Assembly (NCBI GenBank): GCA_043821445.1
Contig: JBDRCT010000033.1
Span: 69,391-133,390, forward strand
Length of the DNA stretch: 64,000 nucleotides
DNA from: Candidatus Omnitrophota bacterium
GTDB lineage: Bacteria > Omnitrophota > Omnitrophia > Omnitrophales > Aquincolibacteriaceae
Reading direction: 5' to 3'
In this document: positions 2,942 through 63,165 of the stretch, piece after piece
Position numbering within the stretch: the stretch's first letter is position 1
Layout of the letters: each line of letters opens with the position of its first letter
Notes under the pieces: generated by a model
Database searches by the model: none
What the model was told of the DNA's origin: nothing
What the model saw: only the letters and a program-made list of their open reading frames with translations
Position numbers and translations under genes: made by a program

Positions 2942-2945
<4 letters not shown>

Positions 2946-10490: not shown

Positions 10491-11617
10491 GGCTTCCTCA
10501 AGATCTTTTCGACCGCATCCAAGACCTCCTCTGGAGTGATGTGCGAAAGCCAGCCTTCTGCCGGAAGGTTCTTGGCGCTCGCCCCGTTACAAAAATCAAC
10601 GCCTTGCTTTTGGGGAAAAAAGTTCTTGAGGAATCTCCCTTTGATATTTCCAAGAACACTCCCTGTTTTCATTTTTGTAACGGGGTAGAAAGGGATCGTA
10701 TAACCCGGAGGAACATATTGCAGCACAAGGCTCTCGCCTCTCCCCCGGGGCCCGGTGAGTTTCGGATCTGTGGGGCCAAAAAGGGCAACGACCGGGGCAC
10801 CGGTGCCGGAAGCGATGTGCATAGGCCCGGAATCTCCGGTCACAAGACATGCCGCATGCTTGTAAATCGCGGCAGAAACACGCAACTCCGTTTTCCCGAC
10901 CAAAGAGATGATCTTTGCGCGACGGACCCCGGATAGGAATTCTTCAAAGAGGGTCTCGTCATTTGGGGAACCGGTCACCACAACCGGAAGCTGCCATTTC
11001 GCTTCGATCTTCTCTGCAAGCGCGGCAAAATGTGCGGCCGGCCAGCGCTTGGGCTCCCAATTCGCTCCCAGATGAAAGCAGATGTATTTCGTGTTCTTTC
11101 CGATACCATGCATCCCGAGGACCTCGCTTGCGGCTTGTTCGTCCTCCTCCTTATAAAAAAACCGGTAGGCTCTTTCCAAGGGAAGCTCAAATCCGGCTCC
11201 TTTCATCATGTTGAAAAAATAATCCAGCTGGTGCATCGGATGCGCGGGTTCCTCGACCGCCAGCGACAAAAATCCTTTCCTTCCTTTTCCGTAACCGATA
11301 CGTTCTTTAACTCCGGCGAGTGCAAGGAACACCGCTCGCGAACGGGAACGATGAAAGAGATAGCCCCGGTCCCAGGGTCCGCGCCTCCTTAACTCCAAAA
11401 CAAATTGCATTCTCGCGAGCCAGGAACGATGCGTGCTCTTTTCGTCAAAGCCTAAGAATCCCGAAACCGCGGGATGAACCTCCAGGATCTCCCGGCATCG
11501 CTCGGGCGCAATGCAAACGATCGAGGCTTCGGGGTATTTTTGTTTGATAAGATCGAGCGCAGGCATTTGGAACAGCAGATCCCCGAGCCAATTTTTCATC
11601 ACAGCGAGGATCTTCAT
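10487..11617 (-). CDS. Glycosyltransferase family 9 heptosyltransferase-like #4
   Basis: MKILAVMKNWLGDLLFQMPAL...TGDSGPMHIASGTGAPVVALFGP. The start is likely at the MKILAV methionine, giving a 4-nt overlap with the upstream gene. Confidence 0.8.
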   Translation of the reverse strand: MKILAVMKNWLGDLLFQMPALDLIKQKYPEASIVCIAPERCREILEVHPAVSGFLGFDEKSTHRSWLARMQFVLELRRRGPWDRGYLFHRSRSRAVFLALAGVKERIGYGKGRKGFLSLAVEEPAHPMHQLDYFFNMMKGAGFELPLERAYRFFYKEEDEQAASEVLGMHGIGKNTKYICFHLGANWEPKRWPAAHFAALAEKIEAKWQLPVVVTGSPNDETLFEEFLSGVRRAKIISLVGKTELRVSAAIYKHAACLVTGDSGPMHIASGTGAPVVALFGPTDPKLTGPRGRGESLVLQYVPPGYTIPFYPVTKMKTGSVLGNIKGRFLKNFFPQKQGVDFCNGASAKNLPAEGWLSHITPEEVLDAVEKILRKP

Positions 11618-19255: not shown

Positions 19256-21355
19256 TCACGGCGCTTCGGATGAAGTTTCGGCGGCGTCGTATTTTTTCGG
19301 CAGCTCATTGACCACGTACGTGCACTTCGGATAATTCGAGCAACCGTAGAACGCCCGGCGGCCTTGGGCCCGGCGTTTCACCAATTCTCCGCCACAACCC
19401 GTCGCCGGGCAAAAGAACCCGGTCGGGAGAGAACGCGTGTACTTACATTCCGGGAATCCGGAGCAAGCCATGAATTTTCCAAACCGCCCGAACTTGATAA
19501 AAACCTGTTTGCCACACAGTTCACATTTGTGATCCGTGGGGATGGGGATTTGCTTGACACTTTTCATTTCTGTCTGTGCGCGCGTCAGGAATTCGCCGAA
19601 AGGCCCGTAAAAATCCTTCAGAACTTTGACCCAGTCCATTTTCCCTTCTTCGATCTCATCCAGCTCCTCTTCCATAAGCGCCGTGAATTCCACATCCAGG
19701 ATCGTCGGAAAATGCCGTACTAAAATATCCACGACCGTTTTGCCAAGTTCGGTAGGCATGAGCGCGCCGCCCTTACGCTCGGCATAAATACGCCCCAGGA
19801 TGGTTGATATCGTGGGCGCATAGGTGCTCGGGCGGCCGATGCCCTTTTCTTCGAGCAGTTTAATCAGGCTTGCATCATTGAACCGCGACGGCGGTTTCGT
19901 AAAGTGTTGTTCGCCCAGGAGTTCATGAAGCGTCAGTTTCTGTCCCGCTTTGAGGTCAGGAAGCTCCAGCGCCTCCGGGACTTCGTCTTCTTCGGCTTCC
20001 TTGGAATTCTCGGTTTCAACTTTGATTTCGCCGAACGCAGCGGTAAATCCCGGAAAGAGATTGCGTTTGCCGGTCGTACGGAATTTGTATCTTTCGCCGG
20101 CCAGGATCGAAATGACGGTGTGTTCATCGACCGCAGGCACCATTTGTGACGCCAGGAATTTCCTCCAGATGAGTTCATAGAGTTTCAACTCGTCGCTTTC
20201 GAGAAAATCTTTCATCGAATCCGGAATGCGAAAGGCCGAGGTCGGACGGATGGCTTCGTGAGCCTCCTGCGCACCCTTGCGGGATTTATATACAGGCGGT
20301 TTTTTAGGAAGATAATCTTTCCCGAATTTCTTTTGGATATAGCGCGCGGCTTCCCCTTGCGCGGAAGCGGCAACATTTACGGAATCTGTTCTCATGTAAG
20401 TGATAAGACCGACGCTGCCTTCGTCTCCGAGTTCCACGCCCTCATACAGCTTCTGTGCGATACGCATCGTGTTCGAGGCCGAGAACCCGAGCTGGCTGTA
20501 AGCTTCTTGCTGGAGTTTGCTTGTGGAATAAGGCGCCTGCGGGTTACGGCGCTTTTCGGTCTTTTCGATATTCGAGACCTGGAAAGGAAGCGGGTGGAGT
20601 TCTTGCTTGATCCGGTCGATCTCGGCCTGGGTCTTGAGTTTGGGCTTCGCTTGATCGATTTGAGTAAGACGGGAAAGAAAAATTTTGGACTGCTCGGGAC
20701 CTTCCGCAGCGGAAAGCTTTGCGTCCAATGTCCAGTATTCTTGCGGCACGAACTTCTGAATCTCGCGCTCGCGATCCACGATAAACCTGAGCGCCACAGA
20801 CTGTACGCGACCCGCGCTGAGCCCCCGGCCGACATTGCGCCAAAGGAGAGGACTCAATTGATATCCGACCACGCGGTCCAGAATGCGGCGCGCCTGCTGC
20901 GCGTTCACAAGATTCATGTCAATCTCGCGGGGATGGTCAAAAGCCTTTGACACGGCCTCTTTCGTGATCTCGTTGAATTCCACCCGAAGGATCTTCGGGC
21001 CGTGGCCTTCCTCTGAAAAAATATGGGCAAGATGCCAACTGATGGCCTCGCCTTCCCGGTCCGGATCGGGCGCGACATAGATGGTTTCTTTATCCTGTGC
21101 GTCCTTTTTAAGCTGTCTGACCGTTTTGAGGGCCCGCCGGATGATGATGTATTCCGGAGCGAAATCATGCTCGATATCGACAGCCATCCGGCTCTTCGGT
21201 AAGTCCCGCACATGGCCCATGGACGCTACAACATGGAAATCCTTGCCGAGGAACTTATTGATGGTTTTGGCCTTGGCCGGTGACTCCACAATCACCAGAT
21301 GCTTGGGTCCCTCCGCGGTCTTTGAAACTTTCACGCCTTTCTTCGCTTTTGCCAC
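19256..21355 (-). CDS. topA: DNA topoisomerase I
   Basis: 699 aa. LVIVESPAKAKTINKFLG Toprim start, the active-site region, and C-terminal Zn-ribbons (CELCGK..., CSNYPKC). Confidence 0.95.
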   Translation of the reverse strand: MAKAKKGVKVSKTAEGPKHLVIVESPAKAKTINKFLGKDFHVVASMGHVRDLPKSRMAVDIEHDFAPEYIIIRRALKTVRQLKKDAQDKETIYVAPDPDREGEAISWHLAHIFSEEGHGPKILRVEFNEITKEAVSKAFDHPREIDMNLVNAQQARRILDRVVGYQLSPLLWRNVGRGLSAGRVQSVALRFIVDREREIQKFVPQEYWTLDAKLSAAEGPEQSKIFLSRLTQIDQAKPKLKTQAEIDRIKQELHPLPFQVSNIEKTEKRRNPQAPYSTSKLQQEAYSQLGFSASNTMRIAQKLYEGVELGDEGSVGLITYMRTDSVNVAASAQGEAARYIQKKFGKDYLPKKPPVYKSRKGAQEAHEAIRPTSAFRIPDSMKDFLESDELKLYELIWRKFLASQMVPAVDEHTVISILAGERYKFRTTGKRNLFPGFTAAFGEIKVETENSKEAEEDEVPEALELPDLKAGQKLTLHELLGEQHFTKPPSRFNDASLIKLLEEKGIGRPSTYAPTISTILGRIYAERKGGALMPTELGKTVVDILVRHFPTILDVEFTALMEEELDEIEEGKMDWVKVLKDFYGPFGEFLTRAQTEMKSVKQIPIPTDHKCELCGKQVFIKFGRFGKFMACSGFPECKYTRSLPTGFFCPATGCGGELVKRRAQGRRAFYGCSNYPKCTYVVNELPKKYDAAETSSEAP

Positions 21356-22022: not shown

Positions 22023-22111
22023 AGTATCTGTCTCTCGAATCAAAGCGTAACACATAAAACGGCACAAGGCGCAAAGCGCAAAGTTTTTAGCCTCAGGCTT
22101 TAAGCTTTACG

Positions 22112-23320
22112 TCATGAGTTGTCGCCGACGAATTCTAGCAGATCGCACTCAGGATAAAGACGCGTCAAATACGTTAACGCGAACACTCGAAAGAAGATCA
22201 CCACCGGCAACATGACCATGCCGATCACCACGATCACAGCCAGGATGAGCGCCATTGCCGCAAGACCCCCAAGGATGATAAGCGGAAGCTTCAGGAATGG
22301 AAGAACATTGATCAAGATAATCCCTGGAATTGCCATGAGCCCGCCAGCGATTACTCCGCCAATCACTGCAAAAATGCCGACGATGCTCTGAGCGATCATG
22401 GCGAGAATCCACAAACCGAAGACCACGAGAAGATATTGGAACGCCTTTCCAAAAGCAAATGTACCGGCCCTCAGAAGTTTATTCAACGCGCTCATCGCTG
22501 GGATCTTTTCACAATACATGAGCGGGAGAACAAAGTCGCGCATGATGGTTCCGACAAAGACCACGGCCACTACCACCGCCAGAACAAAAAGACCCCCGAG
22601 AATCATGAGAGGGATCCCTATCACCGGACTCCATTTCATCATTCCCAAAGAAAGCATTATCAGCAGTCCTGCCGATAAAAAAGCGGTAAGCCCGATCCCC
22701 ATGAAAGCCAGCGTCCATGCAAAATAGGAATTCCCTGCCTCCTTGTGCTTTCTGAACGGTCCTCCGATCGCCGGTTCCCGCGTCAGAATCGCATTCAGGA
22801 GTACGAAATTGAACCGGCTCGATAGCCACACAAAGAATACCGCGAAGGCAACCCCGAGAGAAATGATCCCAGCTGCGACCCATGCCACCCCGATAAGATT
22901 GACCTTGGATTTCAAACGATCCATCCCTGCTCTGATTTTTGCCATGGGGTCCGCATTGGGGCTTGCAGAAGGGGACCTCATTTCGTTTTGTGTCGGCGCT
23001 TGGATCTGCTCCGTGGAAGGAGTCGAAATCCCGGCGACCGCGGGAGTCTCGACCGGTGAGACCGAAGACATTTGCTCCGCCCCTTGCTGGGATATCCCTG
23101 AAGAAGGTTTTGCCATGGTGTTTTCCCCGGACACTGAAGAGGAACGGACGGATTTTTTTGGAATGTTAAAATTCGCACTGAATCCCTGAATGCCCGCGCC
23201 TGCAAGCCAGACGACAATCAGCGCCTTGAGCCAGCGTTTGAAATGAAACGGAAAAAGGATCTCCCGGCTTTTCGCCCAAGAGAACTTGATCATGTTTCTG
23301 ATCGTGGAAGCGCCGTTCAT
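22112..23320 (-). CDS. Hypothetical polytopic membrane protein with a Ser/Pro/Ala-rich N-terminal region
   Basis: 402 aa. A low-complexity segment of about 120 aa (SSSVSGENTMAKPSSGISQQ...SPSASPNADP) precedes about 6 hydrophobic helices. Confidence 0.5.
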   Translation of the reverse strand: MNGASTIRNMIKFSWAKSREILFPFHFKRWLKALIVVWLAGAGIQGFSANFNIPKKSVRSSSVSGENTMAKPSSGISQQGAEQMSSVSPVETPAVAGISTPSTEQIQAPTQNEMRSPSASPNADPMAKIRAGMDRLKSKVNLIGVAWVAAGIISLGVAFAVFFVWLSSRFNFVLLNAILTREPAIGGPFRKHKEAGNSYFAWTLAFMGIGLTAFLSAGLLIMLSLGMMKWSPVIGIPLMILGGLFVLAVVVAVVFVGTIMRDFVLPLMYCEKIPAMSALNKLLRAGTFAFGKAFQYLLVVFGLWILAMIAQSIVGIFAVIGGVIAGGLMAIPGIILINVLPFLKLPLIILGGLAAMALILAVIVVIGMVMLPVVIFFRVFALTYLTRLYPECDLLEFVGDNS

Positions 23321-35200: not shown

Positions 35201-36238
35201 TCAAATTGCGAAGAAGTTTTTCACGCCTTTTTTGAATTTTCCCTTCCAGGTCTTTTGTCCCTGAGCTACAGAAGCCTTCCAACTTTGCCCTGTGGATTCC
35301 ATCCAATCAAAAATTGATTTTTTAAATTCCAGGTCATTAAGTTCCTCATCGCTCTTGTAATCCACGAGATGGAGCGGATAACCCTTTTTTTGAAGTTCGT
35401 CGAACCAACCCTGGTTCCGAGACCGGGCTTCTCCATTCGCTTTCAGTGCGATGTAAAAGGGGACCTGGTCTGCCGCATCCGTGCGAAGCCGGATTAGTTG
35501 AGAAAAAGGTCCGTCCCACGCTTGGCCCAACAAAGCCACTGCCGCAAATTCCTTGGGATACTTAATCGCCATATAAGCCGCGTAATGGGCCCCCAAATCT
35601 TTTCCGACAAGATAGATGCGCTTTTTACTTATGGGAAAGCGTTCCACCATATCTCTTTTTACTGTCAGGAGCCACTCGTCCAGCCTATAAGGCGTATCCC
35701 CCTCTTTCGGCCAGAAAACAAAAGGGGCTAAAATAAAAAGGCCCTTTCTTTGAGCAAGCCCTGTCAAATACTCGATCTGTTCTTCCGCTTTCGCGTCTTG
35801 GGCCGGTGTGATCATGATCATCGCATAGGTCCTGTCGGTCCTGTAATCCTTCGGAGCGAAAAAAAAGACGGGATATTTGTAACCGCTGATCTCCACAAGT
35901 CCGGAAGGGTTTGAAGTTGTGAAGACCTGGTTTTGCGGCATATCTTGAGAAACAAGTTTTGGCGCCTCCGGCGAGGGCTGAACCCGTCCAGGCGTTTGAG
36001 ACCCTTCCGCTGTGGTCGCTGATGGGACTGCTCGGACTGGCGGAACAATCGCTTGCACAGGTTGCGCTCCCTCGGGAACTTGTTGGACCAAAGAGGCCCC
36101 TTCGACAACTCGGGCTTCCCCGAGCACCGGTAAAGTTTCATCATAGTTCGCCGCGGCTTTTTTTTCTTCAACCGTTTCAGCATAAGCGGTTATGCCGAAC
36201 GCGACGAAAAAAGCACTTAAAAAAAGAAATAAAACGCT
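35201..36238 (-). CDS. Secreted alpha/beta-hydrolase-like (esterase-type) protein
   Basis: A signal peptide (MSVLFLFLSAFFVAFGITAYA) and a Pro/Ala/Gln-rich linker precede a domain containing GKDLGAHYAAYMAIKYP, which is a GxSxG-like nucleophile elbow (GKDLG). The assignment is tentative. Confidence 0.45.
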   Translation of the reverse strand, partial: SVLFLFLSAFFVAFGITAYAETVEEKKAAANYDETLPVLGEARVVEGASLVQQVPEGAQPVQAIVPPVRAVPSATTAEGSQTPGRVQPSPEAPKLVSQDMPQNQVFTTSNPSGLVEISGYKYPVFFFAPKDYRTDRTYAMIMITPAQDAKAEEQIEYLTGLAQRKGLFILAPFVFWPKEGDTPYRLDEWLLTVKRDMVERFPISKKRIYLVGKDLGAHYAAYMAIKYPKEFAAVALLGQAWDGPFSQLIRLRTDAADQVPFYIALKANGEARSRNQGWFDELQKKGYPLHLVDYKSDEELNDLEFKKSIFDWMESTGQSWKASVAQGQKTWKGKFKKGVKNFFAI

Positions 36239-36411
36239 CATGCGACAGTTTTCCATTGGACCCTTGATCCCGTGGGGACTTAAATTGATGTAACTTGCTG
36301 CAACGAAAGAGGTTATTATTATATGGATAACCCCTGGCTTGTCAACGCGACTGAAATGGTCCAAAAAACATACCTTTTTGAAAAAACCGCATACTTCTCT
36401 TGAGAATCAGG

Positions 36412-38240
<1,829 letters not shown>

Positions 38241-38244
38241 CTAT

Positions 38245-38272
38245 GATTATAACAAATCCTCAGGGGGTGTCC
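38245..38272 (-). promoter_or_regulatory. Sigma70-like promoter for eno
   Basis: Minus strand TGGACA-N16-TATAAT about 65 nt upstream of the eno ATG, with an aaggag RBS. Confidence 0.4.
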
Positions 38273-38305
38273 AGCACCACGGGCATTGAAACCCGTTCAT
38301 GTCAT

Positions 38306-38875
38306 TCATTTTCCAGACAATACGAGATTTAAGGCCTGGGGGTAAATTTCGTATTCGAGGTTATGGATGCGGGCTTCCAATGTCTCAAGCGTATCGTTGG
38401 GAAGAACCGGGACTTTGCTCTGGAGGATAACGGGGCCAGTGTCCACCCCCGCATCGACAAAGTGAACCGTCACGCCGGTCTCCTTCACTTTCGCAGCCCA
38501 GGCGTCCTTGATCGCGTGAGCCCCCGGAAATGCCGGCAAAAGCGCGGGATGAATATTAATAAGCCGGCCATGGTATTTTTTTACGAATCCTTCGGTCAAG
38601 ATGCGCATGAACCCGGCCAGCACGATGATGTCGACCTTGTGTTTTTCAAGACATTCGCTCAGAGCCTGATCAAAAGCCGTCCGGTCCGCGTATGCCTTAT
38701 GATCGATCACAACTGTTTTCACCCCAAGCATGGCCGCCTTCTCGAGCGCCTTCACGCCGGGCTTGTTCGAGATCACGACTGCGGCTTCGGCATGGATCTC
38801 CCCCGCCCGGATTTTCTTGATTAGATTCTCGGCGTTGGTTCCACTGCCGGATACTAAGAAAGCAATGCGTTTCAT
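38306..38875 (-). CDS. purN: Phosphoribosylglycinamide formyltransferase
   Basis: 189 aa. IAFLVSGSGTNAENLI...NIHPALLPAFPG. Confidence 0.9.
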   Translation of the reverse strand: MKRIAFLVSGSGTNAENLIKKIRAGEIHAEAAVVISNKPGVKALEKAAMLGVKTVVIDHKAYADRTAFDQALSECLEKHKVDIIVLAGFMRILTEGFVKKYHGRLINIHPALLPAFPGAHAIKDAWAAKVKETGVTVHFVDAGVDTGPVILQSKVPVLPNDTLETLEARIHNLEYEIYPQALNLVLSGK

Positions 38876-38885
38876 ATTTGCTTTT

Positions 38886-38961
38886 CGCGCAACGCATAAA
38901 GCGCAACGTACAACGTGTTTTGACCACTTTTACGTTGAGCGTTGATCGTTGAGCGTTGAGC
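38886..38961. repeat. Heptad-repeat hairpin (CGTTGAG units) straddling the rsmI stop codon
   Basis: The right arm is cgttgag cgttgat cgttgag cgttgag (4 x 7 nt). The left arm is complementary (gcgcaacg...caacgtg). The loop contains the rsmI stop (38930-38932). The right arm encodes the RsmI C-terminal tail SSTLNDQRST. Confidence 0.65.
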
Positions 38962-39655
38962 TATCTCCTTTTTTCGGCAAAACTTGCTTTCGTCCTTTCC
39001 CAGAAACTAATACCACCATCTCGCCTTTGCGGGGCTCTTGCGTCATGTCCCGGATGAGTTCGGATAGGTTGCCGCGCAAGATCTCTTCGAATTTTTTCGT
39101 AAGTTCGCGCGCAACCGCAGCTTCTCGGTCTCCAAGGATCTCCCTCGCATCCTGGAGCATTTTCACGATCCTGAAGGGAGACTCAAAAAAAATGAGCGTT
39201 TCTTCCCGTTCTGTGAGCACCCGGAGCTCATGCCTGCGCCGTTCACCCTTATTGGAGAGAAAACCCAAAAAACTAAAACTGTCCGTCGGAAGGCCGCTTA
39301 AAACAAGCGCCGTTGTGATTGCCGACGGCCCCGGCAGTACTTCCAGCGGCAGCTGCTCCGCAAGCGCCGCGTGAACGACCTGGAACCCCGGATCGGATAC
39401 CAGCGGCATCCCACTATCTGAAACCAGTGCGAGACGCTTCCCTTCTTTTAGAAGCGCAACCACCTCCGCTGTCTTCTGCGGAGTGCTATGATCATGATAG
39501 CTGAGCAGCTGCTTCGCGATCCCGTAATGCCGGAGAAGTTTCTGCGTCTGCCGCGTGTCCTCACAGACGATGATGTCCGCCTGTTTCAAGGCCTCAAGCG
39601 CCCTGAACGTAATGTCTGAAAGATTACCGATCGGCGTCGGAACAAGGGTCAACAT
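38930..39655 (-). CDS. rsmI: 16S rRNA (cytidine1402-2'-O)-methyltransferase
   Basis: 241 aa. LTLVPTPIGNLSDITFRALEAL...IVCEDTR...ALVSDSGMPLVSDPG. Confidence 0.85.
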   Translation of the reverse strand: MLTLVPTPIGNLSDITFRALEALKQADIIVCEDTRQTQKLLRHYGIAKQLLSYHDHSTPQKTAEVVALLKEGKRLALVSDSGMPLVSDPGFQVVHAALAEQLPLEVLPGPSAITTALVLSGLPTDSFSFLGFLSNKGERRRHELRVLTEREETLIFFESPFRIVKMLQDAREILGDREAAVARELTKKFEEILRGNLSELIRDMTQEPRKGEMVVLVSGKGRKQVLPKKGDSSTLNDQRST

Positions 39656-39661
39656 AGCCGA

Positions 39662-40669
39662 TCAACAATTCCGCCCAAGGGCATAATCCGCAAGCTGTTC
39701 GAGACTTGTCCTGAAAATAGACGGCGGGAAAACCTCGAGTTCGCGTTTGGCCATGTCCATGAACCCTTTTGCCTTGGCAAGTGCATAATCCAGGGCTCCG
39801 TTTTTTTCAAAGGTCTCCCGAAGCATGGAAAAACGTCTTTTGTGGCTTCGGGAATAAAGAATGCGAACGACTTTGTCCCGCTCTCCCGACGCAAGGCAAT
39901 GGATCACGGGAAGCGTGTAGACCCCTTCTTCCAGGTCCGATCCGAGAGTTTTGCCGAATTTGCTCTCTTCACCTGAAAAATCCAGATAGTCGTCCGTGAT
40001 CTGGAACGCCATTCCGAAAAATTCCCCGAACCGGCCGAGGACCTCTGCTTTCTCAGGTTCAATCCCCCAAATAAGCGCTCCCGTCTGAAGGGCGCACGCA
40101 AGAAACGATGCCGTTTTTTTTCGGATGATCTCGAGATGAATTTTTTCGGTCATGTTGATGTTCTTCTTTTCACTGATCTCCTGAATTTCTCCTTCACAGA
40201 TCTCGCCGGCAGTCCGGAGAAAAAGCGGGATGATCCGGTCATTGCCATAACGAAAGATCGTCACAATGGCGCGATCATGAAAGTAATCCCCCGCGAGAAC
40301 CGCTGCCTGGGATCCTGATTTAATGTGAAGGGCCGAAACCCCTCGTCTTAAGGGCGCAGAATCAATGATGTCGTCATGGATGAGCGTTGCGGCATGGAAG
40401 ATCTCGGCAGCGGCGGCAAGGTGAAGTTCCGCTGTTTCGTTGCGCTCGTGCAAGATCCCATGTCCTGGCCATAGAGATCTGGCCAGGCCGGCTCCCAAAA
40501 AGACGAGGGCGGGGCGCAGGAGCTTCCCGTTCTTTGAAAAAAAATGGTCCACCATTTCTTGCATCTTGAGAATGGGGGTGTTGAGCGTCTCCCGGATAAG
40601 CGATGGGACCCGGCTCATGCCGGCTTGCACCGGCGCATAAATCGTCTCGAGATTCAGTGTGGTAGTCAT
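39662..40669 (-). CDS. ispB: Polyprenyl diphosphate synthase (IspB-like)
   Basis: 335 aa. DDIIDSAPLRRG and DDYLD aspartate-rich motifs. Confidence 0.8.
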   Translation of the reverse strand: MTTTLNLETIYAPVQAGMSRVPSLIRETLNTPILKMQEMVDHFFSKNGKLLRPALVFLGAGLARSLWPGHGILHERNETAELHLAAAAEIFHAATLIHDDIIDSAPLRRGVSALHIKSGSQAAVLAGDYFHDRAIVTIFRYGNDRIIPLFLRTAGEICEGEIQEISEKKNINMTEKIHLEIIRKKTASFLACALQTGALIWGIEPEKAEVLGRFGEFFGMAFQITDDYLDFSGEESKFGKTLGSDLEEGVYTLPVIHCLASGERDKVVRILYSRSHKRRFSMLRETFEKNGALDYALAKAKGFMDMAKRELEVFPPSIFRTSLEQLADYALGRNC

Positions 40670-40695
40670 AAGAGAGCGGTATTATAACCCTTATC

Positions 40696-40771
40696 GTGCA
40701 ACGCGCAAAGGTCAACGCGCAACGAAAAACTCAGAAACATCACGTTGTGCGTTGCGCGTTGTGCGTTGTGC
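40696..40771. repeat. Heptad-repeat hairpin (CGTTGYG units) straddling the rsmA stop codon
   Basis: The right arm is cgttgtg cgttgcg cgttgtg cgttgtg. The left arm is caacgcg caaaggt caacgcg caacg. The rsmA stop (40740-40742) lies in the loop. The right arm encodes the tail DSTTHNAQRTT. Confidence 0.65.
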
Positions 40772-41690
40772 TGTCTTTCTGCTTTTCCAAAGCCTCCGCA
40801 AGAAGGCCGAATTGCTCGAGAGTAAGGGTCTCGCCTCGGATTTTTGAGGAAAAACCGAGTTTTTCGAAAATGCGCTCGAGATCGTCACGCCCATATTGGG
40901 GCCCGAAATAATGCGCCAACAACGATAAAAGAGTTTTGCGCCTCTGACTGAACGCGACGCGGATGATCTCCAAGAGAGATTTTTCGCGCCTCGCTTCAAG
41001 ATCGTCACGATCCCCATGTGGGTCCGTTGGCGCGGACGAATGACCCTGACGGGAAGAAAGGGGAAAATTTGGACGGAACACATACCGCACGACCTGCGAT
41101 GTTACCTCCGGTGGCGGAAGAAAACACTTCGGCGAAACATCGAAAAGGAATTGCGTTTCCCCGTAGAACCGGCTTGTGACGCTCAATCGTCCATAGTCCT
41201 CATCACCCGCTTGCGCGGTAAGCCGCGCGGCCACCTCTTTTTGGAGCATGAGCACGGCACTCGAAAAAACCCTGGCGTGCTCGATCAAATGAAAAAGAAT
41301 GGGCGTGCTGATGTAGTAAGGAAGATTCCCGATCACTTTCGCCCTGGCGCCGGAACCGGCCCATTCCCGGATCATTTTTGTAGGATCACTTTTTAGAATA
41401 TCGCCCCGGATCAATTTGAAATGATCGGAATGCTCCGGCCAAAGTTCTCGCGTCAAGATCTCGACGAACTTCTTGTCTGTTTCTACCGCAAGCAAAGAGA
41501 ACCCGCGCCGCAGGACCTCTTGCGTGACTGCTCCCAATCCAGGTCCGATTTCAAAAACGTATTCGCCGGGTTGAAGATCCAGGGCGTCCACGATTTTGCG
41601 GATCGTATTCGGGTCCATCAAGAGATGTTGACCCAAATGGCCACGGATCCGAAGTGCATATTTTTTAAGTAGTTCTATCTGCGTGAGCAT
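40740..41690 (-). CDS. rsmA: 16S rRNA (adenine1518/1519-N6)-dimethyltransferase
   Basis: 316 aa. GQHLLMDPN...EIGPGLGAVT...NLPYYISTPIL. The C-terminal 12 aa are repeat-encoded. Confidence 0.9.
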   Translation of the reverse strand: MLTQIELLKKYALRIRGHLGQHLLMDPNTIRKIVDALDLQPGEYVFEIGPGLGAVTQEVLRRGFSLLAVETDKKFVEILTRELWPEHSDHFKLIRGDILKSDPTKMIREWAGSGARAKVIGNLPYYISTPILFHLIEHARVFSSAVLMLQKEVAARLTAQAGDEDYGRLSVTSRFYGETQFLFDVSPKCFLPPPEVTSQVVRYVFRPNFPLSSRQGHSSAPTDPHGDRDDLEARREKSLLEIIRVAFSQRRKTLLSLLAHYFGPQYGRDDLERIFEKLGFSSKIRGETLTLEQFGLLAEALEKQKDSTTHNAQRTT

Positions 41691-42694
41691 TTCGCAAGCA
41701 CGGCTTTTTCGGCAAGACGGAGCGCCGCAAGCATAGAGGAAGGATCGGCCTTGCCCTGATAGGCAATATCAAAGGCCGTGCCGTGATCCGGAGAGGTGCG
41801 GACGTAAGGAAGCCCGAGTGTGACGTTCACGCCATCGTGGAACGCGATCAGCTTGAACGCCGTAAGCGCCTGATCGTGGTACATGCCGATCACCGCATCA
41901 TACCGGCCATGATACGCGGCATGAAAAAGGAGATCGGCCGAAAAGGGCCCTGAGGCGCCCATGCCTTTGCGGCATGCCGCGCGGACTGCCGGCTCGATCA
42001 CTTTCGTCTCTTCCTCTCCGAATTCCTTGCCATGCGGATTGAGGGCGCAAACCGCAATCCTGGGTTTTTTGATGCCTTGCCCTTCTTTAAGCATTTCATT
42101 CGTCAGACGGATCTTTTCAAGGATGGACTTCTTCGTGAGCAGTCCGCTTACTTTCTTAAGCGGCACGTGAATGGTCGCAAGCGTCGCATTGAGGCGAGGG
42201 CTCATGAACATCATGGCAAATCGCCGGATCCTAGCTTTCCCGGCAAGAAATTCCGTGTGGCCGATGAATTTTTTATCCACAAGGCGAATCGCTGTCTTGT
42301 TCACTGGCGCAGTCACGATGGCATCGATGATCCCTTGTTTTGCTAAAGACGCCGCTTTTTCGATCGCCAAGAGCGCAAGTCGTCCGTTTTCGCGACAGAG
42401 CTTCCCTATTTGAAACTTTTCACCACCCGAAGGTCCCGATGAAATATCGAGAAAATAGATATGCCCGGCGCGAAGAGATTTTGGAAGAATGGAATGCGCG
42501 GTTTGAAACGGAAGCCAAAGACCTGTTTTTTGACACAGCGTTTTAAACACTTGCCGGGATCCTATCAGGAGATAGGCCAGGCGCTTGGAGGGTTTTTCCT
42601 TTTGGAGGGCCTTCACGAGAATTTCGGGGCCAATGCCGCCCGGATCGCCCATGGTGATTGCGATTACACATGGCTTTTGCTCATTTTTTTTCAT
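41675..42694 (-). CDS. pdxA: 4-hydroxythreonine-4-phosphate dehydrogenase
   Basis: CVIAITMGDPGGIGPE...HGTAFDIA. The surA-pdxA-rsmA order matches E. coli. The likely start is MKKNEQ. Confidence 0.85.
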   Translation of the reverse strand: MKKNEQKPCVIAITMGDPGGIGPEILVKALQKEKPSKRLAYLLIGSRQVFKTLCQKTGLWLPFQTAHSILPKSLRAGHIYFLDISSGPSGGEKFQIGKLCRENGRLALLAIEKAASLAKQGIIDAIVTAPVNKTAIRLVDKKFIGHTEFLAGKARIRRFAMMFMSPRLNATLATIHVPLKKVSGLLTKKSILEKIRLTNEMLKEGQGIKKPRIAVCALNPHGKEFGEEETKVIEPAVRAACRKGMGASGPFSADLLFHAAYHGRYDAVIGMYHDQALTAFKLIAFHDGVNVTLGLPYVRTSPDHGTAFDIAYQGKADPSSMLAALRLAEKAVLAKCSRR

Positions 42695-42730
42695 AACCGA
42701 TACCTCTTTACCTATATCACCAAGACCTAA

Positions 42731-42833
42731 GACCACAGACAACAGACCACGGTAAAAAAACTACCCCTTACCTTAGCCCTCTCCGCACGGGAGAGGATTG
42801 GGTGAGGGAGTCTTCAGTCTGTAGTCTGACGTC
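42731..42833. repeat. GTCTG/CAGAC heptad-repeat arms 3' of surA
   Basis: gaccacagacaacagaccacgg ... an internal GC hairpin (cctctcc/ggagagg) ... gtcttcagtctgtagtctgacgtc. The two arms are mutually complementary at about 70% and have 7-nt periodicity. Confidence 0.55.
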
Positions 42834-43804
42834 TATTTTATGGAAATATAGGCCGCCTTTTTGACTTCTTCCATCCAGTCGCGGAACCTCACGTTGCTTT
42901 TTTCCTGAAAGAGATATCCTGCGATTTGATCTTTCGCTTCTTCAAAAGTCCGGATCTTTTCAGGCTCTTTCGCTTCGACGCGAAAGATATGGTACCCGAT
43001 GGGAGTTTCTACAACCCCGGTAATCTTTCCCACGGGAGTTTTAAAGATCGCCTCATCCACGGATTCGATCATGGCGCCGCGCTCGATCCATTCTCCTGGA
43101 CCTTCCTCTTTGGCATGGCTGTCCTCGGAAAAATCCTTTACGGCTTGGTCAAAATTACGGTTGAGTCGGATCCTTTGGGCCAAAAGCTCGATCCGCTGCT
43201 TTGCTGCTTCATCCGTCAAGCCTTTCGTGCGGGCTTCTTCACTTTTCTTGATCGTGAGCGACTTGACCTGGACACGTTCCTTGCTCTTGAACTTGTCGGG
43301 ATTGTTCCTGAAAAAATCTTCTATCTCGGCAGGAGATACGATCACCTTGGAACGAATCTCACGGTCCTGGAGCTGACGGACCATCGCCTGCTTCTTGAGC
43401 CGCTCGCGCAGGGCTTTCATCGTAAGACCCTCCCGTTCAAGCATCTCTTCCAACTCCCCCGGTTTTTCCATCTTAGCCTTAAACTCCTGGAACTCTTTCT
43501 CCACGTCTTCATCCTTGATCTCGATCCCCATCAAGACCGCCTCTTGGTACACAAGCTTGTCCTCGATCATCTGGCTCAGGATCTTTTGGCGAACCTCGTC
43601 GATCGCTTTCACCAATTCCGCGCCGCTGTATTCCTTGCTGTATTGTTCATAGATCGGCCGGAGGAAAGTGTCCAGTTCGGCTTGGGTGATGACCTCGTCA
43701 TTGACCACAGCCACCACGCGGTCCAGTAGTTCCTGCTCCACGGCGTGGGCAAAAGGAATGCCTAGAACGAGAAATATTATGGGGATCAAAAAAAGACGTT
43801 TCAT
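42833..43804 (-). CDS. surA: Periplasmic chaperone / peptidyl-prolyl isomerase SurA
   Basis: 323 aa. A signal peptide, a SurA N-domain, and one parvulin PPIase domain (GEWIERGAMIESVDEAIFKTPVGKITGVVETPIGYHIFRVE). Confidence 0.8.
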   Translation of the reverse strand: MKRLFLIPIIFLVLGIPFAHAVEQELLDRVVAVVNDEVITQAELDTFLRPIYEQYSKEYSGAELVKAIDEVRQKILSQMIEDKLVYQEAVLMGIEIKDEDVEKEFQEFKAKMEKPGELEEMLEREGLTMKALRERLKKQAMVRQLQDREIRSKVIVSPAEIEDFFRNNPDKFKSKERVQVKSLTIKKSEEARTKGLTDEAAKQRIELLAQRIRLNRNFDQAVKDFSEDSHAKEEGPGEWIERGAMIESVDEAIFKTPVGKITGVVETPIGYHIFRVEAKEPEKIRTFEEAKDQIAGYLFQEKSNVRFRDWMEEVKKAAYISIK

Positions 43805-43826
43805 GGAGGGGTATTATACAACAATT

Positions 43827-43906
43827 CAGACTTGAGACTACAGACTTCAGACCATAAAAAACCGCTCGTTTTGGTCTATCGTCTGTTGTCTGCGGTCTGT
43901 GGTCTG
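43827..43906. repeat. GTCTG heptad-repeat hairpin spanning the mfd stop codon, 5' of surA
   Basis: cagacttgagactacagacttcagacc -loop- ggtctat cgtctgt tgtctgc ggtctgt ggtctg (5 x 7 nt). The second arm encodes the Mfd tail QTTDRRQQTIDQ. Confidence 0.6.
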
Positions 43907-45787
43907 TTTTTGCTCTGCCACGGCTTTTTTGAGCATACGGCAATAAAGATCAAAACCCACAGCCTGAATGAACCCGCTTTGTTCATGTCCAAGCAGATTC
44001 CCGGCGCCGCGGATCTCAAGATCTTCCATCGCGATCTTGAAACCCGACCCGAGTTGGGTGAATTTTTCGATGGCGTGAAGCCTTTTTTGAGCGTCCTGTG
44101 TCATGACCCAATTTTTCGGGATCAGAAAATAAGCATAGGCTTGCCGCTTTTCTTTGAAACGCCCTACACGCCCTCGCAGTTGATAAAGATCCGCAAGCCC
44201 GAAGCAATCGGCCCGGTCCACAAGAAGCGTATTGACGTTCGGAATATCGATCCCGGATTCCACGATACAGGTCGAAATAAGGCAATCGATCTCGCCCCTC
44301 AGGAATTTTTTCATGACGGTTTCAAGCCTGTCGACCGGCATCTGCCCGTGCATGACCCCGAACCGGACGCCGGGCAGAATTTCTTGCATCCGCTTATAGA
44401 CCCGTTCGATCGATTGCACACGGTTGTGCACAAAATAGACCTGCCCTTTGCGCGCAAGTTCCCGCTCGATCGCCTGCTTGATAATGGTTTCATGATATTC
44501 CATGACAAAGGTCTCGATCGGTATCCGGTTTTGAGGCGGCGTATCGATGACCGACATATTGCGCACGCCGAGGAGCGCCATATGGAGCGTTCTCGGGATG
44601 GGCGTGGCCGTAAGCGTCAGGACGTCCACTTGCGTACGCATTTGTTTCAGCTTTTCCTTGTGCCGCACCCCGAAGCGCTGTTCCTCGTCGATCATGACGA
44701 GCCCGAGATCTTTGAACCGGATATCCTTGGAAAGCAGGCGGTGGGTGCCGATCACAACGTCCGTTGCGCCTTCCTGGAGGGACCTGACGATCACCTTTTG
44801 TTCTTTCGGGGATTGAAATCGGGAGAGAAGCTCGACTGTGACCGGAAAATTTTTCGCGCGCTCCTTTAGTAAAACATAATGCTGTTCGGCAAGGATCGTG
44901 GTCGGCACCAAAAACGCCACTTGTTTGCCTCCCATGACCGCTTTGAATGCCGCACGCATCGCGACCTCGGTCTTCCCGTAGCCCACGTCCCCGCAAAGCA
45001 GGCGGTCCATCGGTCCCGTGGATTCCATATCCCGTTTTACTTCTTCGATCGCGCGCTTCTGTCCGGGCGTTTCTTCAAAAGGAAATTCTTTTTCGAATTC
45101 TTTCTGCCATGGCGTGTCCTTCGGGAAGGCCAGCCCTTGCGAAAGACTGCGCTTGGCCTGGATCTCAAGAAGGTCTTTGGCGACCTTGTGGAGCGCCGTC
45201 CGTGTCCGGTGCTTGATCCGCTCCCATTCCTGAGTGTTGAGCCGGGTCAGTTTCGGCCCGACGCCGGAGCCGCCGATGTAACGCTCCACGGGTTCTTCAA
45301 TGGAAAGGTAAAGGATCTCACGCTCGGCGTATTCGATCGCCATACAGCGGGTGCGGACCCCCTGCATTTGAATGACCTTGGTGCCGAGAAAACGACCGAT
45401 GCCGTACTTGAGGTGCACCACGAGGTCCCCGCGCTCAAGGTCTTTGGTGCCGGCCACGGGCTCGAAGGTCTCGAGCCGCTCCTCCATGCGCCGGAGTTTT
45501 TTCCGGAACATGTCGGAGACCTGAATGAGGAACACCTCTTCAAAGGTCGCCGTGCTTTCGCCCGTGGCGAGCGAGAAATCGCGGATCTGGACGGGCGTAT
45601 CGCCTTGAAATTGAATGCGGACAGGAAGCCGGTAGGTCACGGGATAGATGTCCACCATCCCGCCGCGTACGGCGAATTCCCCCGGCAGAGCGACATATTC
45701 CCGCTTCTGGTATTGGAGCCCCGTAAGAAGCTCCTCAAGCTGCCCGATCCCGATCTCCGCGTTGATCCTAAGCCGTCGGATTTCCAC
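43847..45787 (-). CDS. mfd: Compact Mfd-like transcription-repair coupling factor / RNAP-displacing translocase
   Basis: 646 aa with a GTG start. It runs D1b-like (GEFAVRGGMVDIYP...VRIQF), then the RNAP-interaction domain (GDLVVHLKYGIGRFLG), then the SF2 translocase (GDVGYGKTEVAMRAAF...DEEQRFGV...TATPIPRTL...LRGRVGR). No room remains upstream for the UvrB-homology D1a/D2 domains. Confidence 0.8.
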   Translation of the reverse strand: MEIRRLRINAEIGIGQLEELLTGLQYQKREYVALPGEFAVRGGMVDIYPVTYRLPVRIQFQGDTPVQIRDFSLATGESTATFEEVFLIQVSDMFRKKLRRMEERLETFEPVAGTKDLERGDLVVHLKYGIGRFLGTKVIQMQGVRTRCMAIEYAEREILYLSIEEPVERYIGGSGVGPKLTRLNTQEWERIKHRTRTALHKVAKDLLEIQAKRSLSQGLAFPKDTPWQKEFEKEFPFEETPGQKRAIEEVKRDMESTGPMDRLLCGDVGYGKTEVAMRAAFKAVMGGKQVAFLVPTTILAEQHYVLLKERAKNFPVTVELLSRFQSPKEQKVIVRSLQEGATDVVIGTHRLLSKDIRFKDLGLVMIDEEQRFGVRHKEKLKQMRTQVDVLTLTATPIPRTLHMALLGVRNMSVIDTPPQNRIPIETFVMEYHETIIKQAIERELARKGQVYFVHNRVQSIERVYKRMQEILPGVRFGVMHGQMPVDRLETVMKKFLRGEIDCLISTCIVESGIDIPNVNTLLVDRADCFGLADLYQLRGRVGRFKEKRQAYAYFLIPKNWVMTQDAQKRLHAIEKFTQLGSGFKIAMEDLEIRGAGNLLGHEQSGFIQAVGFDLYCRMLKKAVAEQKQTTDRRQQTIDQNERFFMV

Positions 45788-45895
45788 CCCGTTAGATCTC
45801 CTGATTATGTAAATCTTTAAATTTAAAAGGAAATTCCATGGACCTTTCTTCCCCGAAAGTCCCCAGCATTGTTTTGGTTAAGAGATCTAACGGGG
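45788..45895. repeat. E2: segment bounded by CCCGTTAGATCTC / GAGATCTAACGGGG
   Basis: 13-14-nt inverted termini enclose 81 nt. The left end abuts the mfd GTG start. Confidence 0.65.
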
Positions 45896-45989
45896 TCCAT
45901 AGGGAGGGTATTTTAACACAAAGTGGGCCTATTCATTTTTCAAGAAAAGCGGCTTTCCCGGACGGGAACTACTTAAAAATAGAGGCGTC

Positions 45990-46042
45990 CTGGATTCAAA
46001 TATAAAAATAATTGAAATCCAGGACAGCACTGATCTTCAATG
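45990..46042 (-). terminator. Putative aspC terminator
   Basis: A 10-bp stem (gtcctggatt / aatccaggac) with a 19-nt AT-rich loop, followed on the minus strand by gccucuAUUUUUaag. The stem type is shared with repeat R-C. Confidence 0.4.
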
Positions 46043-46098
46043 AATTTTTATAGAGGATCAGGCGATGCACTTGACGGAGGGTTGCTTTCTCTTATTTT

Positions 46099-47262
46099 TT
46101 ATTTGAAGATAGAGGAAATTCGTGTTACCGCGGCTTCGATGTCTTTTTCTGAGGTGGCGTAACTCATGCGGATATGACGAGGACTGCCGAATGGCTCGCA
46201 GGGAATGACCGCGACATGGACTTCATCGAGGAGTTTCTTCGCGACTTCAAAGCCGCTCAGGCCCGTTCCCTGAATGTCCACGAAAAGATAGAAAGCTCCG
46301 TTCGATCTGAACGGTTTAAAGGATTTCACGGCCTTCAGTTTCTCGATGAAAAGATCGCGGCGTTTCTGGAACACTTCGCACATCTTTTGGGCTTCCGCAT
46401 CCCCTTGATCCAGGGCGACCACTGCACCGGGCTGCGTGAAAGAAACCGGATTCGACGTCGAGTGGCTCTGAATGCTCTCCACGGCCTTGGCGAGGGTCTT
46501 ATCCGGAAACGCGGCATATCCCAAACGCCAACCGGTCATTGCATAGGCTTTGCTGTGCCCGTTCACGATCACCGTGCGCTTGGCGATCTCGGGATCCAAA
46601 GATGCGATCGAAACGTGTTTGCGGCCGTCAAAAACAAGTTTTTCATAGATCTCGTCGCTTAACACGGTCACGTTCGGGAACTTCTTAAGCGCCGCACAAA
46701 GCGCCGAGAGTTCTTCCCGGGAATAAACGGCCCCGGTGGGATTCGACGGCGAATTCAGAATGAGGATCTTGGAACGCGGCGTGAGCGCTTTTGCGAGCAC
46801 TTCGGGTGTGATCTTGAAATCCGTTTTTTCCGTCGACGGGAGAAAAACACTCGCACCGCCGAGGACGGTCACCATTTCGGGATAACTCAACCAATAGGGC
46901 ACGGGAATAAGCACTTCATCGCCCGGGTTCAAAAGGGCAAAAAGCACATTAAAGATCACATGCTTGGCACCACAACCGACCACGATCTGATCGGGAGTAA
47001 AATCAAGGCCCTGATCACGCTTCAGTTTGCGGCAAATGGCCTGGCGAAGTTCGACGGTTCCTGGAACGGGGGTATATTTGGTATTCCCTTTGTTGAGGGA
47101 TTCGATACAGGCGTTTTTGATAAAGGCCGGTGTATCAAAATCTGGTTCGCCGGCGCTCAAGGAGATCACATCGATCCCCTGCGCTTTCATCGCCTTCGCC
47201 TTGGCGGCTATTTCAAGTGTCACTGAGGGTTTTACCGCGAGAACTCTGCTTGAAAGTTCCAT
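46099..47262 (-). CDS. aspC: Aspartate/aromatic aminotransferase (PLP-dependent, class I)
   Basis: 387 aa. NSPSNPTG...SKAYAMTGWRLGY PLP-lysine motif. Confidence 0.85.
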   Translation of the reverse strand: MELSSRVLAVKPSVTLEIAAKAKAMKAQGIDVISLSAGEPDFDTPAFIKNACIESLNKGNTKYTPVPGTVELRQAICRKLKRDQGLDFTPDQIVVGCGAKHVIFNVLFALLNPGDEVLIPVPYWLSYPEMVTVLGGASVFLPSTEKTDFKITPEVLAKALTPRSKILILNSPSNPTGAVYSREELSALCAALKKFPNVTVLSDEIYEKLVFDGRKHVSIASLDPEIAKRTVIVNGHSKAYAMTGWRLGYAAFPDKTLAKAVESIQSHSTSNPVSFTQPGAVVALDQGDAEAQKMCEVFQKRRDLFIEKLKAVKSFKPFRSNGAFYLFVDIQGTGLSGFEVAKKLLDEVHVAVIPCEPFGSPRHIRMSYATSEKDIEAAVTRISSIFK

Positions 47263-47267
47263 GCTTG

Positions 47268-47394
47268 CCCCGTTAGAGATAGGGAACGCTTTAAAAGCGT
47301 TCCCGTTTGTTGTTTTGAAATCCTACATCAAACCTTTTATCCTGCTTCCCGAAAAAGACCCGCAAAAATATTTCCTCGCTGATCTCTAACGGGG
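47268..47394. repeat. E3: segment bounded by CCCCGTTAGAGAT / ATCTCTAACGGGG
   Basis: 13-nt perfect inverted termini enclose 101 nt. The interior holds a perfect plus-strand hairpin, GGGAACGC-TTTAAA-GCGTTCCC, followed by GTTTGTTGTTTTG. It lies between the rplQ stop and the aspC ATG, with 5 nt to the ATG. Confidence 0.7.
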
Positions 47395-63059: not shown

Positions 63060-63165
63060 CCCCGTTAGAGGCCTGAACCCCTCGGGCTGTCCTTTTCTTC
63101 TAATTCTACTTTCTTCTTTTTTAAAAATCTTACGCACGCCCCAGGCTGTCAAGCCTCTAGCGGGG
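63060..63165. repeat. E4: segment bounded by CCCCGTTAGAGGC / GCCTCTAGCGGGG between fusA and rpsJ
   Basis: 12-13-nt inverted termini with one mismatch enclose 80 nt. The right end lies 1 nt from the fusA stop. The left end lies 6 nt from the rpsJ ATG. Confidence 0.65.

Follow-up and report, generated by a model that had tools for sequence, protein, structure and literature searches.

The window analysed here is a 64-kb stretch of DNA from Candidatus Omnitrophota, in which mfd, surA, pdxA, rsmA, 'ispB' (polyprenyl synthase), rsmI and purN follow one another on the minus strand. Four junctions of this gene run, rsmI-purN (site 1), rsmA-ispB (site 2), mfd-surA (site 3) and surA-pdxA (site 4), carry a palindromic element made of heptanucleotide repeats, and comparison with relatives showed that, at gene 3' ends and between genes in this Omnitrophota clade, such elements come, go and replace one another as complete units. 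Loci from other genomes or metagenome contigs are labelled L0xx. A genome collection scanned with RsmA yielded six Candidatus Omnitrophota contigs from metagenome-assembled genomes (MAGs) at 70-80% identity, and further relatives came from scanning metagenomes with IspB and from looking up RsmI homologues. An exact look-up with the PurN of the window matched no contig. The gene order was kept in all relatives found, the closest being L090 (92% RsmI identity).

Read in the mRNA sense, the four junctions share one design, in which a 5' array of 4-5 heptamers and a 3' array of four enclose a loop. Each heptamer consists of a 5-nt complementary core and a 2-nt variable spacer, the 3'-array core being the reverse complement of the 5' core (CAACG/CGTTG at sites 1 and 2, CAGAC/GTCTG at sites 3 and 4; Table 1). 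The rsmA TGA stop (40740-40742) stands directly after the 5' arm of site 2 and is followed by the loop. The interior of site 4 looks like an intrinsic terminator nested between the arms. In the window and in the related loci, a T-run closes most loops immediately ahead of the 3' arm, and an A-run stands before many of the 5' arms.

The original prediction, made from the letters of the window, had described this design at the ends of rsmI, rsmA and mfd and a fourth GTCTG/CAGAC pair after surA; all four were confirmed by Tandem Repeats Finder (TRF), a lag scan and folding. The count was extended by two weaker hairpins. One, of a GCGTACG family also seen at surA-pdxA in L005 and L006 and at rsmA-ispB in L090, begins ~5 nt past the TGA stop of the open reading frame (ORF) at 18367-19308; the other, with AAAGC/CTTTG cores, directly follows the stop of the ORF at 22112-23320. 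All six window hairpins thus include a stop or begin 0-5 nt after one, and at least four unrelated cores (CAACG, CAGAC, GTACG and AAAGC) occur within 64 kb. No further copies of the CAACG and CAGAC families were found in the window beyond the four sites.

TRF placed period-7 arrays of 3.9-5.1 copies at exactly these arms, and a lag scan of the whole window returned phased tracts at period 7 only, except for one coding tract at 6/9 nt. Complementarity of the arms, as predicted, exceeded that of shuffled controls: ungapped Watson-Crick matches numbered 20/28, 21/28, 21/30 and 19/28 at sites 1 to 4, and none of 5000 shuffles of the 3' arm equalled the observed value at any of them. The arms at 22063-22111 were complementary at 11 of 14 positions (15 of 5000 shuffles as good), with a fold z-score that was not significant. 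RNA fold z-scores were -2.4 for site 1, -1.3 for site 2 (-4.3 on the opposite strand), -5.2 for site 3 and -4.6 for site 4, and the predicted RNA hairpins consisted of 4-6-bp helices separated by 1-3-nt internal loops.

Table 1. Coordinates of the hairpins, flanking signals, genes and start-codon elements
Feature	Position	Strand	Sequence or remark
Site 1, mRNA-5' arm	38933-38960	-	(CTCAACG)x4, one unit ATCAACG; encodes RsmI tail SSTLNDQRST
Site 1, loop (17 nt)	38916-38932	-	opens with rsmI TAA stop 38930-38932
Site 1, mRNA-3' arm	38888-38915	-	CGTTGTA CGTTGCG CTTTATG CGTTGCG; purN ATG 12 nt further on
Site 1, left flank GGAGATAG	38961-38968	-	Shine-Dalgarno-like GGAG, 8-10 nt from purN start in empty alleles
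Site 2, mRNA-5' arm	40743-40770	-	(CACAACG)x4, one unit CGCAACG; encodes RsmA tail STTHNAQRTT
Site 2, mRNA-3' arm	40697-40724	-	CGTTGCG CGTTGAC CTTTGCG CGTTGCA
Site 2, TATAAT -10 box, ispB promoter module (ATAAGGGTTATAATACC)	40681-40686	-	11 nt before ispB ATG 40669
Site 3, mRNA-5' arm	43872-43906	-	(CAGACNN)x5; encodes Mfd tail QTTDRRQQTID
Site 3, mRNA-3' arm	43827-43854	-	TGGTCTG AAGTCTG TAGTCTC AAGTCTG; includes mfd TGA stop 43847-43849
Site 3, TATAAT -10 box (TTGTTGTATAATACC)	43813-43818	-	8 nt before surA ATG 43804; conserved here across the clade
Site 4, mRNA-5' arm	42809-42836	-	ATAGACG TCAGACT ACAGACT GAAGACT; surA TAG stop 42833-42835 in first unit
Site 4, interior	42754-42796	-	GC-rich hairpin CCTCTCC-CGTGC-GGAGAGG (42778-42796) and T7 (42754-42760)
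Site 4, mRNA-3' arm	42723-42750	-	GTGGTCT GTTGTCT GTGGTCT TAGGTCT; pdxA ATG at 42694
Fifth, weak hairpin (AAAGC/CTTTG)	22063-22111	-	CGTAAAG CTTAAAG ... CTTTGCG CTTTGCG CCTTGTG
Sixth, weaker hairpin (GCGTACG family)	18302-18361	-	GGTATAC GGGGTAA AGCGTAC GGCG ... CGCCGTA CACCGTA CGCC
purN	38306-38875	-	start ATG 38875
rsmI	38930-39655	-	
'ispB' (polyprenyl synthase)	39662-40669	-	ATG 40669
rsmA	40740-41690	-	
pdxA		-	ATG at 42694
surA	42833-43804	-	ATG 43804
mfd (short)	43847-45787	-	
Start-codon family, window	10583-10684, 13711-13835, 45788-45894, 47269-47393, 63061-63164		
Start-codon family, relatives	L004 4241-4363; L013 ~2945-3059; L016 1791-1888		

Repeat-encoded C-terminal tails

The tails of RsmI, RsmA and Mfd are encoded by the elements and lie beyond the C-termini of these families, as had been proposed. 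The RsmI set comprised 121 orthologues, namely 120 relatives from an RsmI search and the window protein. Sixty-seven of them were 232 aa long and ended in ...LPKRxxx without a tail. Fourteen (13 and the window protein) shared the tail x(S/A)TxNxQ(R/T)xT, the cyclic translation of four CNCAACG units; these showed 70-92% identity and had four units in 14/14 cases, and no tail of 1-3 units was found among the 121. Likewise, the rsmA and mfd genes of L011, L013 and L091, which have no heptads at their ends, stop right after the conserved end. At mfd the predicted heptad hairpin was present, but the stop, said to follow the five heptads directly, was located inside the distal arm, so that the mfd ORF reads through the proximal arm and the loop. 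Mfd itself is short, with 646 aa in the window and 632-643 aa in the relatives; it matches only positions 276-830 of the 907 in the TIGR00580 model and is without most of the N-terminal region and the C-terminal domain.

An ORF runs through the 5' arm because the arm is T-poor, 7 is coprime with 3, and the array is stop-free in all frames. Where an element is placed on or before a stop, the ORF continues through the arm to a stop in the loop or the 3' arm, and the read-through product is a heptad-periodic tail of 10-20 aa, a by-product.

A contingency locus had been put forward as a possible role. At such a phase-variable locus the heptad count would change frequently and switch the C-terminus of the upstream protein or downstream expression. 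Among the orthologues this was not borne out: the number of units was four in all 14 tailed RsmI proteins, and the six sequenced rsmI-purN junctions were all 4+4. Tandem repeats are slippage-prone in principle, and one single-unit difference was seen, in the 5' arm at surA-pdxA (four units in the window, five in L004). A slip would, however, change the tail only, because 7 and 3 are coprime; with the repeats in the last codons it gives the same cyclic peptide and a nearby stop, with no on/off switch. The genes concerned are housekeeping genes, and Rehm et al. reached the same conclusion for Xanthomonas (PMC4692102). Phase variation is therefore extremely improbable as an account of these loci.

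Gain, loss and replacement of whole elements

Filled and empty alleles of rsmI-purN were found in orthologous positions. The junction is filled in the window, L004, L006, L090 and L091, with 85-93 nt and 4+4 CAACG units, and degenerate in L092, where the 4+4 arrangement carries a 40-nt insertion in the 3' arm. It is empty in L002, L005, L010, L011, L094 and L095, in all six of which the rsmI stop overlaps the purN start (an 8-nt gap and ATGA in five, a 6-nt gap and GTGA in L094). The tailed state was scattered on the RsmI tree with at least 12 changes by parsimony, on a tree that is short and possibly blurred by recombination. In the near-isogenic contigs L091 (filled) and L095 (empty), which come from sister samples, identity was 100% over 6.2 kb, from mfd to nt 390 of rsmI, and then ~80% to the end of L091; this may be a real recombinant or an assembly chimera at the contig end, and the pair was not used as proof.

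At rsmA-ispB the core family itself differed between relatives: CAACG in the window, CAGAC in L004 and L012, GCGTACG in L005 and L090, and GGGAACG in L006 and L010, with GGGAACG remnants in L002 and L003 and nothing in L011, L013 and L091. A relation to 16S rRNA methyltransferases, raised because two of the three upstream genes first described encode them, did not hold, since the same kind of element follows mfd, surA and ispB and is absent from the rsmI and rsmA junctions of close relatives.

Similar copies were also found at non-orthologous junctions. The rsmA-ispB element of the window matched the mfd-surA element of L004 at 84% identity over 104 nt, a stretch that takes in the loop and the flanking ATAAGGGTTATAAT promoter, and the mfd-surA element of the window was 78% identical over 98 nt to that at rsmA-ispB in L012. 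Hairpin and promoter modules are effectively swapped between mfd-surA and rsmA-ispB in the window versus L004. At 4-fold degenerate sites the window shared only 58% identity with L004 and 41% with L006. Two paralogous composites, 75% identical, are also present in L004; in them CAGAC arms surround a GC hairpin and T-run as at site 4.

Growth in situ, with neither mobility nor function, would offer another origin: polymerase slippage, favouring 7-nt units, would expand an array in one arm of a small hairpin already there, intramolecular template switching would copy it to the other, and the result would be neutral filler. Among long simple sequence repeats (SSRs) of prokaryotes, the heptanucleotide class is reported to be the most over-represented, and slippage has been proposed as the reason (as summarised in PMC4679880 and PMC4692102). 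This, the four versus five units at surA-pdxA, together with the decay of orthologous copies without compensation (e.g. the 3' arms of L090 and L092), fit this origin. Yet rsmI-purN was all-or-none, with 0 or 4 units among the 121 orthologues, and the loop, spacers and flanking promoter are shared at 78-84% identity between junctions that are not orthologous. Template switching should further yield complementary spacers, and the spacers are not complementary. Between the window and L004 or L006 the cores were ~92% identical, the spacers 50-81% and the 4-fold sites 41-58% (read from the alignment), which also argues against neutral filler. Growth in place is accordingly unlikely. Filled and empty orthologous sites, the fixed four units, the single architecture and the swapped modules argue instead for discrete, copyable elements rather than gradual slippage.

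Other features were noted in the related loci. In L003 (~1045-1461) a GC-rich, apparently structured insert of 417 nt without an Rfam match occupies rsmA-ispB, where others carry the heptad hairpin. In L004 (~735-860) an inserted GC hairpin with T-run is flanked on both sides by copies of the final ~30 nt of mfd (ATGCTCAAGAAAGCCGTCGAAGAACAAAAA, ATGTTCAAGAAAGCGGTGGAAGAACAAAAAAA), and just downstream lies the CAACG heptad element. Longer palindromes of the CCAAG/CTTGG heptad type (170-205 nt) were seen at ispB-rsmI and surA-pdxA (L005 11955-12160; L010 7003-7170 and 3843-4041), and at ispB-rsmI a small GC hairpin (AAGGGGCCTCAGCCCCTT) comes next, immediately ahead of the rsmI ATG. In the distant Omnitrophota relative L092/L093, a gene of 9803 aa was called from 9527 onward, downstream of divIC.

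Promoters, terminators and ribosome-binding sites

The hairpins span stops or directly follow them, and at two junctions, mfd-surA and rsmA-ispB, a conserved TATAAT promoter comes immediately after. There the 3' arm borders on a promoter-like motif found clade-wide, TTGTTGTATAATACC (one variant AAGGGTTATAAT), with the ATG ~8-11 nt further on. In the window this motif (variant AAGGGTTATAATACC) stands upstream of surA and ispB at 43812-43823 and 40675-40690, and it was seen at the same junctions in L001-L013 and L090-L092. The short spacing implies that the surA and ispB mRNAs of the clade would be near-leaderless. As a promoter stands between the hairpin and the next start at sites 2 and 3, mRNA made from it for the downstream gene would exclude the hairpin, and occlusion of the intercistronic region, as first suggested, is not sustained at these sites. 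We infer that at these two junctions the hairpin probably closes the upstream message and is not the leader of the gene that follows.

The neighbourhood of arm and promoter could alternatively mean that the four phased heptamers act in the DNA, as promoter-upstream arrays for a binding protein or as structural modules, with the inverted partner secondary. The 3' arm adjoins the TATAAT promoter at both junctions throughout the clade; solitary GTCTGx4 arrays without a 5' partner precede the promoter in L001, L002 and L090; the -10 context tracks the heptad family (CGTTG with AAGGGTTATAAT, GTCTG with ATTGTTGTATAAT); and folding that is neutral to the strand, described below, would fit. Four unrelated cores at orthologous promoters of sister genomes are nevertheless hard to square with a specific regulator, no such promoter is present at sites 1 and 4, and a period of 7 bp does not keep phase with the DNA helix. 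A function of this kind is decidedly unlikely.

At rsmI-purN the arrangement differs. The purN ATG of site 1 has no adjacent Shine-Dalgarno (SD) sequence, and the GGAGATAG flank on the other side of the hairpin is identical in 5 of the 6 filled alleles, down to 70% RsmI identity. Tight coupling was probably the ancestral state, the element having apparently been inserted between the SD and the ATG of purN. Folding of the hairpin would bring these to within 3-13 nt of each other and create a 'split ribosome-binding site (RBS)' such as those of phage T4 genes 38 and 25, in which a hairpin between SD and AUG restores functional spacing (PMC3014915). As in the T4 genes, SD and ATG stand on opposite sides of the hairpin; those of T4 are short and dedicated, whereas the one at rsmI-purN is ~75 nt long and belongs to a dispersed element, with a putative effect of this kind.

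The elements might be cis-regulatory RNA hairpins, selected and kept for their structure, that control downstream translation, either through a split RBS or by coupling, ribosomes melting the 5' arm. Terminating ribosomes must open the helix in most copies, since the stop stands in the loop or closes the 5' arm, and the position of GGAG 5' and an SD-less ATG 3' of the rsmI-purN hairpin, the largely unchanged flank, the predicted folded distance and the T4 precedent all favour such control. Against it, a promoter separates hairpin from start codon at sites 2 and 3, the stop of site 4 comes at the beginning of the 5' arm, with a terminator enclosed in the element, neither covariation nor a sense-strand preference was detected, and close relatives without the element use tight ATGA coupling. 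Translational control as the general role is unlikely.

A second, unrelated element family of ~95-130 nt was also seen. Its copies are bounded by inverted repeats of 12 nt (CCCCGTTAGAGA ... TCTCTAACGGGG) and vary in the interior; five copies occur in the 64 kb, most exactly at start codons (Table 1). Most copies are flanked by a 4-nt direct repeat (TGAA/TGGA/TGAG), and the right junction regenerates the start, e.g. GGGG|TGAA -> GTGAA at mfd. No Rfam match was found for this family. From its sequence it looks like a start-codon-targeting miniature inverted-repeat transposable element (MITE), or a conserved leader stem.

A probable dispersed class of heptamer palindromes

On balance, the hairpins are probably copies of a dispersed, multi-family class of small palindromic heptamer-repeat elements, ~70-140 bp long, with a likely role at transcript ends. 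Such an element has about four tandem heptamers per arm in mutually complementary arrays and an A/T-rich apex usually ending in a T-run, and some copies enclose a canonical terminator. In RNA the arms would form a ~28-bp helix with a 2x2 internal loop every 5 bp, which would end the upstream message just ahead of the promoter of the next gene. On this model the hairpin most likely serves in termination, as a barrier to 3' exonucleases, or as an insulator; it may also be a target of RNase III, as first suggested. Copies could spread by homologous recombination or gene conversion between junctions, or through a hairpin-recognising enzyme.

Several results weigh against this interpretation. Sense and antisense fold energies were equal over 25 junctions (12 vs 13; Wilcoxon p=0.95; G-U asymmetry test). 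In the six orthologous rsmI-purN copies, which keep the helix through invariance of the cores, only 1 of 28 pairs was compensatory, several were broken, and the covariation term was unfavourable (+2.42). Sites 1-3 have no canonical U-tract after the stem, the T-run being inside the loop. Similar hairpins in other phyla also lie between divergent genes, and a role at 3' ends is not universal. The patchy presence could be explained by recombination alone. Filled and empty rsmI-purN alleles showed no clear target-site duplication, the arms serving as the inverted repeats; no conserved terminal tag was found in the window and related loci, where element ends differ by family; and no associated transposase was identified in the 64-kb window and the short related loci. 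A scan for consensus terminators did not call sites 1-4 on the gene strand, and a GC stem with T7, with a gap, was present only in the inner hairpin of site 4. Rfam 15 gave no match at E<=1 in 36000-47000 and none at the gathering score in five related loci.

The design extends beyond this clade. A simple detector run over 797 kb (the window and 89 loci of many lineages) found 22 inverted pairs of phased 5-mers at period 7 and 0-3 each at periods 5, 6 and 8-12, the matches including a Verrucomicrobiota MAG and many unrelated metagenome contigs, each with different cores. TRF returned 28 period-7 arrays, mostly of 3.3-4.4 copies, in 193 kb of the clade, and 7 was the commonest tandem-repeat period in the Omnitrophota loci. 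The Verrucomicrobiota MAG (L007, 7945-13832) has six period-7 tracts in 19 kb, one of them spanning an inverted ATTTGCG/CGCAAAT pair; it also has three period-8 tracts, of which two form an adjacent inverted pair, and the period-8 arrays point to a sister design in this lineage.

Among known systems, the inverted GGGAATC heptamer pairs of Xanthomonas come closest (Rehm et al. 2015, PLoS One, PMC4692102). There, four units are preferred, arrays are biased to adjoin or overlap the upstream stop, and each genome has 70-75 convergent inverted pairs that could form stem-loops. The repeats were linked neither to phase variation nor to insertion sequence elements, and their function was left unexplained. 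Transcripts begin or end at these repeats more frequently than at controls, and the authors interpreted them as G-quadruplex formers. The 7-nt unit, the number of about four, the stop-adjacent intergenic position and the convergent stem-loop pairs all recur here. Xanthomonas, a member of the Gammaproteobacteria, has one genome-wide G-rich motif, whereas in Omnitrophota, of the Planctomycetes-Verrucomicrobia-Chlamydiae (PVC) group, several unrelated cores, mostly unsuited to quadruplexes, share one architecture, the arrays are nearly always paired, and there is whole-element presence or absence, family replacement and apparent copying of modules between junctions. A G-quadruplex explanation was rejected for the window cores, as CAACG, CAGAC, GTACG and AAAGC contain no G3 tracts; G-rich families (GGGAACG/GGGACT) were found only in relatives.

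REP/REPIN elements and MITEs are likewise short imperfect intergenic palindromes, often at gene 3' ends and with several families per genome, for which roles in termination and mRNA stabilisation have been proposed (PMC3733652, PMC3116915). The present elements resemble them as dispersed palindromes with insertion/absence polymorphism between relatives. They differ in that the conserved terminal GTAG/CGTC tag of REPs (defined in PMC3733652) was not found and in that each arm is built of repeats (4x7 nt), not of unique sequence. The cyanobacterial STRR, Beggiatoaceae TAACTGA and Geobacter metallireducens 4x/5x heptanucleotide elements are tandem heptamers too, with 2-6 units (often 4-5); they are mostly intergenic, with few overlapping ORF ends, and present in dozens to hundreds of copies of unexplained function (PMC4679880, PMC2700814). 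Most of these are direct arrays of a single motif, which in Beggiatoaceae lie ahead of start codons, and inverted pairing is rare among them (one case in 170, in the Maribeggiatoa genome), in contrast to the nearly complete pairing here. Literature searches turned up no account of heptad hairpins for Omnitrophota or the PVC group.

Repeat-encoded C-terminal tails in MAG proteins are, on the reading of the hairpins as dispersed elements, by-products of insertion and not functional extensions, and ORF callers over-extend genes through such stop-free arrays. Heptamer repeats are reported to be over-represented yet are functionally unexplained, and the present locus offers filled and empty sites together with roles that can be tested. 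A broader proposal, which we consider improbable, is that these are structure-defined mobile palindromes spanning phyla, recognised by an enzyme through their shape, not their sequence, and moving as cassettes of hairpin and outward promoter. If it were true, the operon boundaries and protein C-termini of Omnitrophota, Verrucomicrobiota and further uncultured bacteria would be reshaped by such transcript-boundary cassettes.

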